64,000 nucleotides of DNA. Origin: Escherichia coli (GTDB taxonomy: Bacteria > Pseudomonadota > Gammaproteobacteria > Enterobacterales > Enterobacteriaceae). The notes below the pieces were generated by a model. That model did no database searches. It saw only the letters and a list, made by a program, of their open reading frames with translations, and was not told the DNA's origin. Numbering within the stretch: position 1 is the first letter of the stretch; each line of letters begins with the position of its first letter. The position numbers and the translations under genes were made by a program. Positions 4,829-61,229 of the stretch are shown piece after piece. The stretch lies in the NCBI RefSeq assembly GCF_003334335.1, contig NZ_QOWQ01000008.1. One strand, 5' to 3'.

Positions 4829-6334
4829 ATGGAAACCAAAGATCTGATTGTGATAGGGGGCGGCATCAATGGTGCTGGTATCGCGGCAGACGCCGCTGGA
4901 CGCGGTTTATCCGTGCTGATGCTGGAGGCGCAGGATCTCGCTTGCGCGACCTCTTCCGCCAGTTCAAAACTCATTCACGGTGGCCTGCGCTACCTTGAGC
5001 ACTATGAATTCCGCCTGGTCAGCGAGGCGCTGGCTGAACGTGAAGTGCTGCTGAAAATGGCCCCGCATATCGCCTTCCCGATGCGTTTTCGCCTGCCACA
5101 TCGTCCGCATCTGCGCCCGGCGTGGATGATTCGCATTGGTCTGTTTATGTACGATCATCTGGGTAAACGCACCAGCTTGCCGGGATCAACTGGTTTGCGT
5201 TTTGGCGCAAATTCAGTGTTAAAACCGGAAATTAAGCGCGGATTCGAATATTCTGACTGTTGGGTAGACGACGCCCGTCTGGTACTCGCCAACGCCCAGA
5301 TGGTGGTGCGTAAAGGCGGCGAAGTGCTTACTCGGACTCGCGCCACCTCTGCTCGCCGCGAAAACGGCCTGTGGATTGTGGAAGCGGAAGATATCGATAC
5401 CGGCAAAAAATATAGCTGGCAAGCGCGCGGCTTGGTTAACGCCACCGGCCCGTGGGTGAAACAGTTCTTCGACGACGGGATGCATCTGCCTTCGCCTTAT
5501 GGCATTCGCCTGATCAAAGGCAGCCATATTGTGGTGCCGCGCGTGCATACCCAGAAGCAAGCCTACATTCTGCAAAACGAAGATAAACGTATTGTGTTCG
5601 TGATCCCGTGGATGGACGAGTTTTCCATCATCGGCACTACCGATGTCGAGTACAAAGGCGATCCGAAAGCGGTGAAGATTGAAGAGAGTGAAATCAATTA
5701 CCTGCTGAATGTGTATAACACGCACTTTAAAAAGCAGTTAAGCCGTGACGATATCGTCTGGACCTACTCCGGTGTGCGTCCGCTGTGTGATGATGAGTCC
5801 GACTCGCCGCAGGCTATTACCCGTGATTACACCCTTGATATTCATGATGAAAATGGCAAAGCACCGCTGCTGTCGGTATTCGGCGGTAAGCTGACCACCT
5901 ACCGAAAACTGGCGGAACATGCGCTGGAAAAACTAACGCCGTATTATCAGGGTATTGGCCCGGCATGGACGAAAGAGAGTGTGCTACCGGGTGGCGCCAT
6001 TGAAGGCGACCGCGACGATTATGCCGCTCGCCTGCGCCGCCGCTATCCGTTCCTGACTGAATCGCTGGCGCGTCATTACGCTCGCACTTACGGCAGCAAC
6101 AGCGAGCTGCTGCTCGGCAATGCGGGAACGGTAAGCGATCTCGGGGAAGATTTCGGTCATGAGTTCTACGAAGCGGAGCTGAAATACCTGGTGGATCACG
6201 AATGGGTCCGCCGCGCCGACGACGCCCTGTGGCGTCGCACAAAACAAGGCATGTGGCTAAATGCGGATCAACAATCTCGTGTGAGTCAGTGGCTGGTGGA
6301 GTATACGCAGCAGAGGTTATCGCTGGCGTCGTAA
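4829..6334 (+). CDS. glpD: aerobic sn-glycerol-3-phosphate dehydrogenase GlpD
   Basis: ORF track 4814..6334 (GTG) trimmed to ATG at 4829 giving 501 aa METKDLIVIGGGINGAG...; FAD-binding GxGxxG. Confidence 0.92.
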   Translation: METKDLIVIGGGINGAGIAADAAGRGLSVLMLEAQDLACATSSASSKLIHGGLRYLEHYEFRLVSEALAEREVLLKMAPHIAFPMRFRLPHRPHLRPAWMIRIGLFMYDHLGKRTSLPGSTGLRFGANSVLKPEIKRGFEYSDCWVDDARLVLANAQMVVRKGGEVLTRTRATSARRENGLWIVEAEDIDTGKKYSWQARGLVNATGPWVKQFFDDGMHLPSPYGIRLIKGSHIVVPRVHTQKQAYILQNEDKRIVFVIPWMDEFSIIGTTDVEYKGDPKAVKIEESEINYLLNVYNTHFKKQLSRDDIVWTYSGVRPLCDDESDSPQAITRDYTLDIHDENGKAPLLSVFGGKLTTYRKLAEHALEKLTPYYQGIGPAWTKESVLPGGAIEGDRDDYAARLRRRYPFLTESLARHYARTYGSNSELLLGNAGTVSDLGEDFGHEFYEAELKYLVDHEWVRRADDALWRRTKQGMWLNADQQSRVSQWLVEYTQQRLSLAS

Positions 6335-55006: not shown

Positions 55007-55594
55007 ATGTATCGGATAGTTCTGGGGAAAGTTTCGACCTTAAGCGCAGCTCCACTGCCACCGGGTTTACGCGAGCAAGCACCGCAAGGTCCACGACGCG
55101 AACGCTGGCTGGCGGGGCGTGCATTGCTTTCGCACACGCTTTCCCCGCTACCGGAGATCATCTATGGCGAACAAGGCAAACCTGCATTTGCGCCGGAAAT
55201 GCCGCTATGGTTCAACTTAAGCCATAGCGGTGACGATATCGCCCTGCTGTTGAGTGATGAAGGCGAAGTCGGCTGCGATATCGAAGTGATTCGCCCGCGC
55301 GCCAACTGGCGCTGGCTGGCGAACGCCGTATTCAGCCTCGGGGAACACGCTGAGATGGACGCCGTGCATCCTGATCAGCAACTGGAAATGTTCTGGCGCA
55401 TCTGGACGCGCAAAGAAGCCATCGTTAAACAGCGTGGCGGCAGCGCCTGGCAAATCGTCAGCGTAGACAGCACCTATCACTCCTCGCTGTCAGTCAGCCA
55501 TTGTCAGCTTGAAAATTTAAGCCTTGCGATCTGCACCCCTACTCCCTTTACGCTCACCGCCGACAGTGTGCAATGGATCGATTCAGTTAACTGA
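55007..55594 (+). CDS. acpT: 4'-phosphopantetheinyl transferase AcpT
   Basis: ORF track 195 aa. Confidence 0.9.
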   Translation: MYRIVLGKVSTLSAAPLPPGLREQAPQGPRRERWLAGRALLSHTLSPLPEIIYGEQGKPAFAPEMPLWFNLSHSGDDIALLLSDEGEVGCDIEVIRPRANWRWLANAVFSLGEHAEMDAVHPDQQLEMFWRIWTRKEAIVKQRGGSAWQIVSVDSTYHSSLSVSHCQLENLSLAICTPTPFTLTADSVQWIDSVN

Positions 55595-55639
55595 TCTGCC
55601 CACCCGACTGCCCATCTATTGATCCAGAACAGGTAATCA

Positions 55640-55667
55640 GTATGACGAATACTTAAAATCGTCATAC
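55640..55667 (+). promoter_or_regulatory. NikR operator at the nikA promoter
   Basis: GTATGA-N16-TCATAC dyad (GTATGACGAATACTTAAAATCGTCATAC) ~40 bp upstream of nikA ATG. Confidence 0.8.
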
Positions 55668-55704
55668 TTATTTCCGCCATCTATTTTAATCCATTGGGGT
55701 TACC

Positions 55705-57279
55705 ATGCTCTCCACACTCCGCCGCACTCTATTTGCGCTGCTGGCTTGTGCGTCTTTTATCGTCCATGCCGCTGCACCAGATGAAATCACCACCGCCTGG
55801 CCGGTGAATGTCGGGCCACTAAACCCGCACCTTTACACGCCTAACCAGATGTTCGCCCAGAGCATGGTTTATGAACCATTGGTGAAATATCAGGCAGACG
55901 GTTCGGTGATCCCGTGGCTGGCAAAAAGCTGGACTCATTCAGAAGATGGTAAAACCTGGACCTTCACCCTGCGTGATGACGTGAAATTCTCCAACGGTGA
56001 ACCGTTCGATGCCGAGGCGGCGGCAGAAAACTTCCGCGCAGTGCTCGATAACCGTCAACGTCACGCCTGGCTGGAGCTGGCAAACCAGATTGTTGATGTT
56101 AAAGCACTCAGTAAAACAGAGCTGCAAATTACCCTGAAAAGCGCCTACTATCCTTTCCTGCAAGAACTGGCCCTGCCCCGTCCTTTCCGTTTTATCGCTC
56201 CCTCGCAGTTTAAAAACCATGAAACCATGAACGGAATTAAAGCGCCGATTGGCACCGGACCGTGGATTTTGCAGGAATCGAAACTGAATCAGTACGATGT
56301 CTTCGTCCGTAACGAAAACTACTGGGGCGAAAAGCCAGCGATTAAAAAGATCACCTTTAACGTCATCCCGGACCCGACTACCCGCGCGGTGGCGTTTGAA
56401 ACTGGCGATATCGACCTGCTGTACGGAAACGAAGGGTTATTACCGCTCGATACCTTCGCCCGCTTTAGCCAGAATCCGGCTTACCACACCCAACTGTCAC
56501 AGCCGATCGAAACCGTGATGCTGGCGCTCAATACCGCCAAAGCCCCCACCAACGAGCTGGCAGTACGTGAAGCTCTTAATTACGCGGTAAACAAAAAATC
56601 GCTGATTGATAACGCGTTGTATGGCACCCAGCAGGTCGCCGACACCCTGTTTGCCCCTTCTGTGCCCTACGCCAACCTCGGCCTGAAACCGAGCCAGTAC
56701 GATCCGCAAAAAGCGAAAGCGTTGCTGGAAAAAGCCGGTTGGACGCTGCCTGCGGGCAAAGACATCCGCGAGAAAAATGGTCAGCCGCTGCGCATTGAAC
56801 TTTCGTTCATCGGCACCGATGCGTTAAGCAAATCGATGGCGGAAATCATTCAGGCTGATATGCGCCAGATTGGCGCAGATGTCTCGCTGATTGGCGAAGA
56901 AGAGAGCAGTATCTATGCTCGTCAGCGCGACGGTCGTTTTGGCATGATTTTCCACCGCACCTGGGGCGCGCCATATGATCCACACGCCTTCCTCAGTTCA
57001 ATGCGCGTACCGTCACACGCTGACTTCCAGGCACAGCAAGGATTAGCCGACAAACCGCTGATTGATAAAGAGATCGGCGAAGTGCTGGCGACCCATGACG
57101 AAACGCAACGTCAGGCGCTGTATCGCGACATTCTGACCCGTCTGCATGACGAGGCGGTTTATCTGCCTATCAGTTACATCTCAATGATGGTGGTATCAAA
57201 ACCGGAGCTGGGTAACATCCCCTACGCGCCGATCGCCACCGAAATTCCGTTCGAACAGATTAAACCGGTGAAACCTTAA
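55705..57279 (+). CDS. nikA: periplasmic nickel-binding protein NikA
   Basis: ORF track 524 aa with signal peptide. Confidence 0.95.
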
Positions 57280-58219
57280 TGTTGCGTTACGTATTACGCC
57301 GCTTTCTGCTGCTGATCCCGATGGTGCTCGCCGCCTCGGTGATCATTTTTCTGATGCTGCGCCTCGGTACCGGCGACCCGGCGCTCGATTATTTGCGTCT
57401 GTCTAACCTGCCGCCGACGCCGGAGATGCTGGCCTCTACCCGCACCATGCTGGGACTGGATCAGCCGCTGTACGTCCAGTACGGCACCTGGTTGTGGAAG
57501 GCGCTGCATCTTGACTTTGGTATCTCATTCGCCAGCCAACGCCCGGTACTGGACGATATGCTGAACTTCCTGCCCGCCACGCTGGAACTTGCAGGTGCGG
57601 CGCTGGTATTAATTCTGCTCACTTCCGTACCGCTCGGTATCTGGGCGGCGCGCCATCGCGACCGTCTGCCGGATTTCGCCGTACGTTTCATCGCGTTTCT
57701 TGGCGTGTCGATGCCTAACTTCTGGCTGGCGTTTTTACTGGTGATGGCGTTTTCGGTGTATCTGCAATGGCTACCCGCGATGGGTTACGGCGGCTGGCAG
57801 CACATCATTTTGCCTGCGGTTTCCATTGCCTTTATGTCGCTGGCGATTAACGCGCGTTTACTGCGCGCCAGTATGCTGGACGTCGCCGGTCAGCGTCACG
57901 TCACCTGGGCGCGTCTGCGCGGCCTGAACGACAAACAGACCGAACGTCGCCACATCCTGCGCAATGCCTCGCTGCCGATGATCACCGCCGTGGGGATGCA
58001 TATCGGCGAACTGATTGGCGGGACGATGATTATCGAAAACATCTTTGCCTGGCCGGGCGTCGGGCGCTATGCGGTGTCGGCGATTTTTAACCGTGACTAT
58101 CCGGTGATCCAGTGCTTTACGCTGATGATGGTGGTGGTTTTTGTGGTCTGTAATTTGATTGTCGATTTGCTCAACGCCGCGCTGGACCCGCGCATTCGTC
58201 GTCATGAAGGAGCGCACGC

Positions 58220-58223
<4 letters not shown>
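57279..58223 (+). CDS. nikB: nickel ABC permease NikB
   Basis: ORF track 314 aa; 1-bp overlap with nikA. Confidence 0.95.
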
Positions 58224-61027
<2,804 letters not shown>

Positions 61028-61229
61028 GTCTATTATTGGGTCCTTTGGTGAACGATCAACAAAGGGCCACTAGCACACCTGATTCCTCTCTAAATACCCT
61101 ATCCGAACCTTCTCTTTTGTAACGTTCTAAATATATTCCTAAAAATCTTCAATTCATTGTGACCACAAGTTTTTCTTCGCTTTTTCGTATGAAGATACTG
61201 TCATTAAAATAATAGAAAAGGATTTTACG

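Follow-up and report, generated by a model that had tools for sequence, protein, structure and literature searches.

The operator of the Ni(II)-dependent repressor NikR in the nikABCDE promoter of Escherichia coli has been published as the dyad GTATGA-N16-TCATAC, as given in three sources (PMC7055735; PMC4486848; PMC2875016). According to reviews, Ni(II)-NikR binds this exact operator with nanomolar affinity, and both Ni(II)-dependent NikR binding and in vivo nickel-dependent repression have been published for this sequence. In the co-crystal 2HZV, as outlined in two of these sources, the antiparallel beta-strands of two ribbon-helix-helix domains lie in the major groove of each half-site, and the NikR tetramer adopts a closed cis conformation (PMC4486848; PMC2875016). 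The published description is of an imperfect 16-6-16 inverted repeat with one half-site at either end (PMC4486848). A comparative genomics study proposed GTATGAT-N13/14-ATCATAC as the consensus of the enterobacterial NikR box (PMC545781).

The NikR operator shares its overall design with the MetJ, Arc, Fur and Zur boxes: a repressor activated by a co-repressor binds a dyad overlapping the -10 element of an uptake operon and occludes RNA polymerase. The NikR half-sites are separated by two helical turns and bridged by the central tetrameric metal-binding domain, whereas MetJ and Arc occupy adjacent sites. Helicobacter pylori NikR, unlike the E. coli protein, recognizes a weak consensus and has many targets (PMC4486848; PMC2875016). 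The NikR boxes of Deltaproteobacteria have GTGTTAC half-sites, which differ from the GTATGA of E. coli. Point mutations in the half-sites that leave the -10 hexamer intact reportedly abolish nickel repression, a result credited to Chivers and Sauer in 2000.

In this work, comparative genomic approaches were applied to a dyad at positions 55640-55667 of a 64-kb stretch of E. coli DNA (hereafter the window), for which an original prediction made from the letters alone had proposed a NikR operator upstream of nikA. We identify the dyad as the textbook operator of E. coli nikABCDE-nikR, bound by Ni(II)-NikR and already fully described, with a probability of about 0.97. The identification combines observations made here, on the dyad itself, its surroundings, its conservation and an encoded protein identical to crystallised NikR, with the nickel-dependent binding, the co-crystal and the FNR position at -40.5, all taken from the literature. 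For nickel-dependent repression by a ribbon-helix-helix metalloregulator, this locus is the reference case, and the known picture is unchanged; the value added is that of a clean positive control, a real operator picked out from sequence alone.

Operator and gene context

The genes of the locus were assigned by curated family models as follows.

55007-55594, + strand: acpT, curated NCBIfam model above cutoff.
55705-57279, + strand: nikA, periplasmic nickel-binding protein; TIGR02294, 840 bits against a cutoff of 393; RefSeq annotation agrees.
57279-60620, + strand: nikB, nikC, nikD and nikE (two permeases, two ATPases); NCBIfam equivalog and subfamily models above cutoffs; RefSeq agrees.
60626-61027, + strand: nikR, Ni(II)-dependent ribbon-helix-helix repressor; NF002815, 235 bits against a cutoff of 83.

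Open reading frames and curated models place acpT, nikA, nikB, nikC, nikD, nikE and nikR on the same + strand, and the RefSeq record of an identical chromosome agrees with the model calls. The acpT and nikA genes are 110 bp apart, and the dyad occupies part of this gap, 45 nt past the acpT stop codon and starting 65 bp 5' of the nikA ATG, so that its predicted placement between these two genes is borne out by the open reading frames, the NCBIfam models and the RefSeq annotation. The position of nikR at the distal end of the operon was also predicted correctly: it is the last gene of the cluster, on the + strand, and its start follows the nikE stop codon by 5 bp. The gene for the Rhs element protein RhsB starts about 200 bp 3' of nikR (from about 61230 of the window onward), and a terminator scan found no intrinsic terminator on the + strand between nikR and rhsB.

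The encoded NikR is identical over 133/133 residues to the PDB chains 1q5v, 2hza, 2hzv and 3od2. Its translation contains the nickel ligands H76, H87, H89 and C95 of the high-affinity His3Cys site as well as R3, T5 and T7 of the N-terminal strand. The protein has the N-terminal ribbon-helix-helix domain and the His3Cys site that characterize the NikR family, scoring above the cutoffs of both TIGR02793 and NF002815, and the cognate NikR of the operator is encoded in the same genome, at 60626-61027.

The elements of the operator itself, none of which is assigned to a strand, are as follows.

55640-55667, no strand: core NikR operator, GTATGA-N16-TCATAC, at approximately -26 to +2 of the nikA promoter.
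55640-55645, no strand: left half-site GTATGA, exact in 61/70 unique Enterobacterales sequences, with a per-base identity of 0.91-1.00.
55662-55667, no strand: right half-site TCATAC, exact in 58/70 Enterobacterales sequences.
55639-55668, no strand: perfect inverted repeat with 10-bp arms AGTATGACGA and TCGTCATACT and a 10-bp spacer, read from the sequence.

Positions 55640-55667 read GTATGACGAATACTTAAAATCGTCATAC, an exact match to the enterobacterial NikR operator consensus GTATGA-N16-TCATAC with its span of 27-28 bp. Both the position and the sequence of the dyad had been predicted exactly, and it is the only exact match in the window. The motif scan that had been proposed as a check thus returned one exact match in 64 kb, compared with a mean of 0.01 per window in dinucleotide-preserving shuffles, where a match of any kind occurred in 1/100 shuffles. 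When up to three mismatches were allowed, the window contained 19 matches against 17.1 expected, and hence the exact site alone is exceptional. Intergenic DNA often contains short AT-rich palindromes, and the window has about as many near-matches with two or three mismatches as chance predicts, as would be the case if the dyad were a palindrome arisen by chance and devoid of function; the exact match, expected only 0.01 times per window, argues against this explanation, as do the binding and structural data reported in the published sources (PMC7055735; PMC4486848; PMC2875016).

The symmetric element is longer than the 6+16+6 arrangement initially described, and it encloses the putative -10 hexamer. 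The arms of the perfect repeat occupy 55639-55648 and 55659-55668, and they sit within a larger, imperfect repeat spanning 55632-55675, whose arms of 17 nt (55632-55648 and 55659-75) show 88% complementarity. This longer symmetry agrees with the imperfect 16-6-16 repeat of the E. coli NikR operator literature (PMC4486848).

Compared with the E. coli K-12 NikR operator in PnikABCDE (Chivers & Sauer 2000; 2HZV, Schreiter et al. 2006), the dyad has the same sequence, GTATGA-N16-TCATAC, and the same position between acpT and nikA. The NikR protein is identical as well. In a K-12-like chromosome, the region from the FNR site through the ATG is identical to the window, and the 110-bp gap differs by one base only, at 55597, just 3' of the acpT stop codon; the functional region is without any difference. 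Several E. coli chromosomes share the 6.2-kb stretch around the dyad at 100% identity, all 5426 complete E. coli genomes contain a match to this stretch, and the intergenic region was found at >=95% identity in 5426/5426 of them, a level of variation too low to be informative within the species. The few E. coli variants are located 5' of the TTGAT block or at arm position 7.

Phylogenetic footprint

For the analysis of conservation, 80 nikA loci of other species were collected by a NikA scan of species-representative genomes, ranging from Escherichia to Alphaproteobacteria, Desulfovibrio and Firmicutes. The dyad, with a spacer of 16 and at most one mismatch, has 74 matches in the 24 kb of sequence 5' of nikA against a single match in the remaining 1.01 Mb of locus sequence, which is the conservation across orthologous loci expected of an enterobacterial NikR operator. 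The sole background match, in locus L002, is the operator itself, displaced approximately 500 bp upstream by an inserted repeat array. With two mismatches allowed, the dyad is present in 76/80 loci. Among the exceptions, the Stappia locus (L072) has a dyad with a spacer of 15, still within the published span of 27-28 bp, and in this locus nikR lies 5' of nikA in the same orientation. At the Desulfovibrio, Paenibacillus and Domibacillus loci, no dyad was found at up to two mismatches, and nikR is also absent from the locus. Since both the sequence and the position of the dyad 5' of nikA are conserved from Escherichia to Alphaproteobacteria, this enrichment effectively refutes a functionless chance palindrome. 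The NikR-operator reading is supported both by this cross-species footprint and by the identity of the dyad to the published operator.

A gap-free column profile of 70 unique Enterobacterales sequences anchored on the dyad consists of four conserved blocks, TTGAT, GTATGA, TAnAAT and TCATAC, amid variable DNA. Column identity averages 0.89 across the operator and 0.83 across the FNR 14-mer, compared with 0.41-0.49 in the flanks. The TTGAT block lies at a fixed distance of 17-21 bp 5' of the dyad and is exact in 68/70 sequences, while TAnAAT within the spacer is found in 70/70, with variation at position 3 alone. The main variant of the right arm is TCACAC, which appears without compensation in the left arm. 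A simple cross-species footprint thus recovers the promoter logic without prior knowledge: an FNR box, an operator and a putative -10 hexamer in the operator spacer.

The window dyad shares its form and its span of 27-28 bp with the enterobacterial NikR box (PMC545781), and the 70-sequence profile obtained here, GTATGAYGA...TCRTCATAC, reproduces the consensus of that box. At the seventh arm position, the E. coli arms have C/G instead of the T/A of the enterobacterial NikR box; one strain, E. coli O166:H15, has T at the seventh position of the left arm, like the enterobacterial consensus.

In Alphaproteobacteria, the half-sites are retained, whereas the spacer sequence and the TTGAT block (FNR box) are not, as one would expect if NikR contacted the half-sites and the remaining blocks were promoter elements particular to each lineage. 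This pattern bears on the proposal that the conserved block represents mainly a promoter (the -10 and FNR elements) or the site of another regulator such as NarL, with the symmetry being incidental. The spacer TAnAAT is indeed as conserved as the half-sites, and TACTTAT at 55665-55671, which matches the NarL-type heptamer perfectly, shares bases with the right half-site. However, the alphaproteobacterial loci keep the half-sites where the spacer and FNR box are not conserved, both arms converge on one consensus, and the heptamer is present in only 23/70 sequences. The promoter function is additional to NikR binding rather than an alternative to it, and as a replacement for the NikR operator this proposal can be set aside. 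In four of the alphaproteobacterial loci (L068, L069, L070 and L073), nikR is divergent from nikA and the dyad is located in the shared intergenic region; in the same loci, a TTGAC-like -35 motif directly 5' of the dyad replaces the enterobacterial FNR box.

A palindrome at this position could also act, instead of or besides NikR binding, as an RNA hairpin that, for example, ends the acpT transcript as an intrinsic terminator or stabilises its 3' end. The 10-bp stem with its extensions has a predicted folding energy of -15.6 kcal/mol (z = -5.4 against shuffles) and is located 45 nt 3' of the acpT stop codon; however, any perfect palindrome folds well, and the z-score is therefore uninformative. 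Among 65 unique sequences, the share of paired cells is 89.8%, the same as in the column-shuffled control (89.8 +/- 0.4, 266/500 shuffles as high), and only 1 double-sided change was observed against 10 uncompensated A.C mismatches, with no covariation. The two arms therefore appear to be conserved each to the same consensus and not to co-evolve. The 10-nt loop holds the fully conserved TAnAAT, which an RNA loop would not need; the stem is not followed by a U-tract, and the terminator scan calls none; an Rfam search gave no match. Furthermore, the dyad accompanies nikA in at least 76/80 loci, whereas acpT is upstream in only 10/80, and a nik mRNA that starts at the putative nikA start, within the 3' arm, would be unable to form the hairpin. 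Taken together, a role as an RNA element is very improbable. As a Rho-independent terminator, the candidate was rejected on its structure: 4 GC pairs in a stem of 10, a loop of 10 nt compared with the usual 3-8, and the tail UAUUUCCG.

Proposed promoter architecture and repression

The NikR operator overlaps the promoter of the nickel-uptake operon, for which the following elements were assigned.

55619-55632, + strand: FNR site TTGATccagAACAG, centre 55625.5, at approximately -40.5; the sole FNR-like site with at most two mismatches in the intergenic region.
55654-55659, + strand: putative -10 hexamer TAAAAT, inside the operator spacer; TAnAAT in 70/70 sequences; fits an FNR centre at -40.5.
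55666, + strand: putative transcription start of nikABCDE(-nikR); the -10 hexamer ends 7 nt 5' of it, and the FNR centre is 40.5 nt 5' of it.

Direct activation of nikABCDE by FNR through one site at -40.5 has been reported from ChIP-seq and expression data (PMC3688515). In the window, TTGATCCAGAACAG carries 8/10 of the specified bases of the FNR box TTGAT-N4-ATCAA and is centred at 55625.5. The published position of -40.5 would put the transcription start at about 55666 and the operator at about -26 to +2. Numbered from this putative start, the FNR site extends from -47 to -34, the operator from -26 to +2 and the -10 hexamer from -12 to -7, and the nikA ATG is at +40. The FNR box, at -40.5, is then centred close to the -41.5 of class II FNR-dependent promoters, and the dyad, as in other enterobacterial NikR operators, lies in a nickel-uptake promoter and overlaps the core elements, given the start as predicted. 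A scan of 55400-55800 with the generic sigma-70 consensus found no promoter; this outcome is to be anticipated where a promoter depends on an activator and lacks a -35 element, and it does not count as positive evidence.

On this architecture, repression would proceed as follows. Given enough Ni(II) in the cytoplasm, the metal would occupy the four square-planar His3Cys sites of the NikR tetramer, and the beta-sheets of the two ribbon-helix-helix dimers would enter the major groove at the two GTATGA half-sites, which are approximately two helical turns apart. Because the operator encloses the -10 hexamer, NikR bound at -26 to +2, over TAAAAT and the start, would be expected to occlude RNA polymerase sterically. 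In this way, repression by Ni-NikR would prevail over activation by FNR from its class II site at -40.5. The exact start, the hexamer and the occlusion are inferred here. With nikR last in the cluster, repression would also lower its own read-through transcription, forming a negative feedback loop.

According to work attributed to de Pina and colleagues in 1999, nikR is said to possess a weak constitutive promoter of its own, in which case its autoregulation would be only partial. A simple scan of 60300-61300 for a nikR-specific promoter gave no + strand candidate 5' of nikR, a result that neither confirms nor excludes the promoter just mentioned. The compact feedback loop seen in the original prediction is a fair description of the arrangement, with nikR last and on the same strand, but it is not the whole story: the nikABCDE promoter needs FNR (PMC3688515), and regulation of the nikA promoter by nitrate and NarL has been reported (Rowe et al. 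2005, as cited in PMC2718512).

With respect to NarL, the TACTTAT heptamer at 55665-55671 (-1 to +6) perfectly matches the NarL-type pattern TACYYMT and overlaps both the right NikR half-site and the putative +1, and a second heptamer with 6/7 matches, TACTTAA, lies in the spacer at 55650-55656. At the window-wide frequency, the chance expectation of such a heptamer is 0.04 per 110 bp, a figure to be read with the TAC already fixed by the NikR half-site. Among the related sequences, TACTTAT is kept in 23/70. According to a 2009 paper, no NarL site had been detected in the nikA promoter region (PMC2718512). On the basis of these motif matches, it is conceivable, though doubtful, that the two heptamers are the sites through which NarL represses nikABCDE in nitrate; were this the case, the same DNA would be shared between NikR and NarL or contested by them.

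Variation among related loci

Across genera, the dyad is flanked symmetrically, by A-rich DNA on its left side and T-rich DNA on its right (consensus AAAA-GTATGA...TCATAC-TTTT in the window at 55639-55675 and in the aligned loci), and in the aligned loci the conserved half-site reaches inward to GTATGAYGA. The symmetric flanks and the extended half-site may reflect backbone contacts or bending.

The repressor gene is co-located with nikA in 62/80 loci, and in 57/80, as in the window, it follows nikE directly in the same orientation. A search of the 6-kb flanks on either side of nikA found no nikR homologue in three Edwardsiella loci (L049, L050 and L052), two Atlantibacter loci (L044 and L047) and the loci L025, L018, L080, L075 and L066, which means that the repressor is either encoded elsewhere or missing. 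A good NikR dyad is present 5' of nikA in all of these loci.

In two Escherichia loci, the operator has been separated from nikA by inserted DNA. In Escherichia sp. E1V33 (L002), an insertion of approximately 430 bp (5530-5960) parts the intact operator at 5502-5529 from nikA; it includes a tandem array with a period of 81 bp and 3.1 copies (5643-5894), and the sequence 3' of the operator has been replaced. In Escherichia sp. MOD1-EC7003 (L004), an insertion of approximately 112 bp (about 5870-5985) lies within the nikA leader, 3' of the operator and 5' of the ATG, and the operator is found at -177 instead of -65. This insertion resembles an ERIC element (...GAATCCCCAGGCGCTTACTAAAGTAAGTGACTG...GAAGTATGACGAGTATA). 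The element's own end carries the motif GTATGACG, which resembles a NikR half-site.
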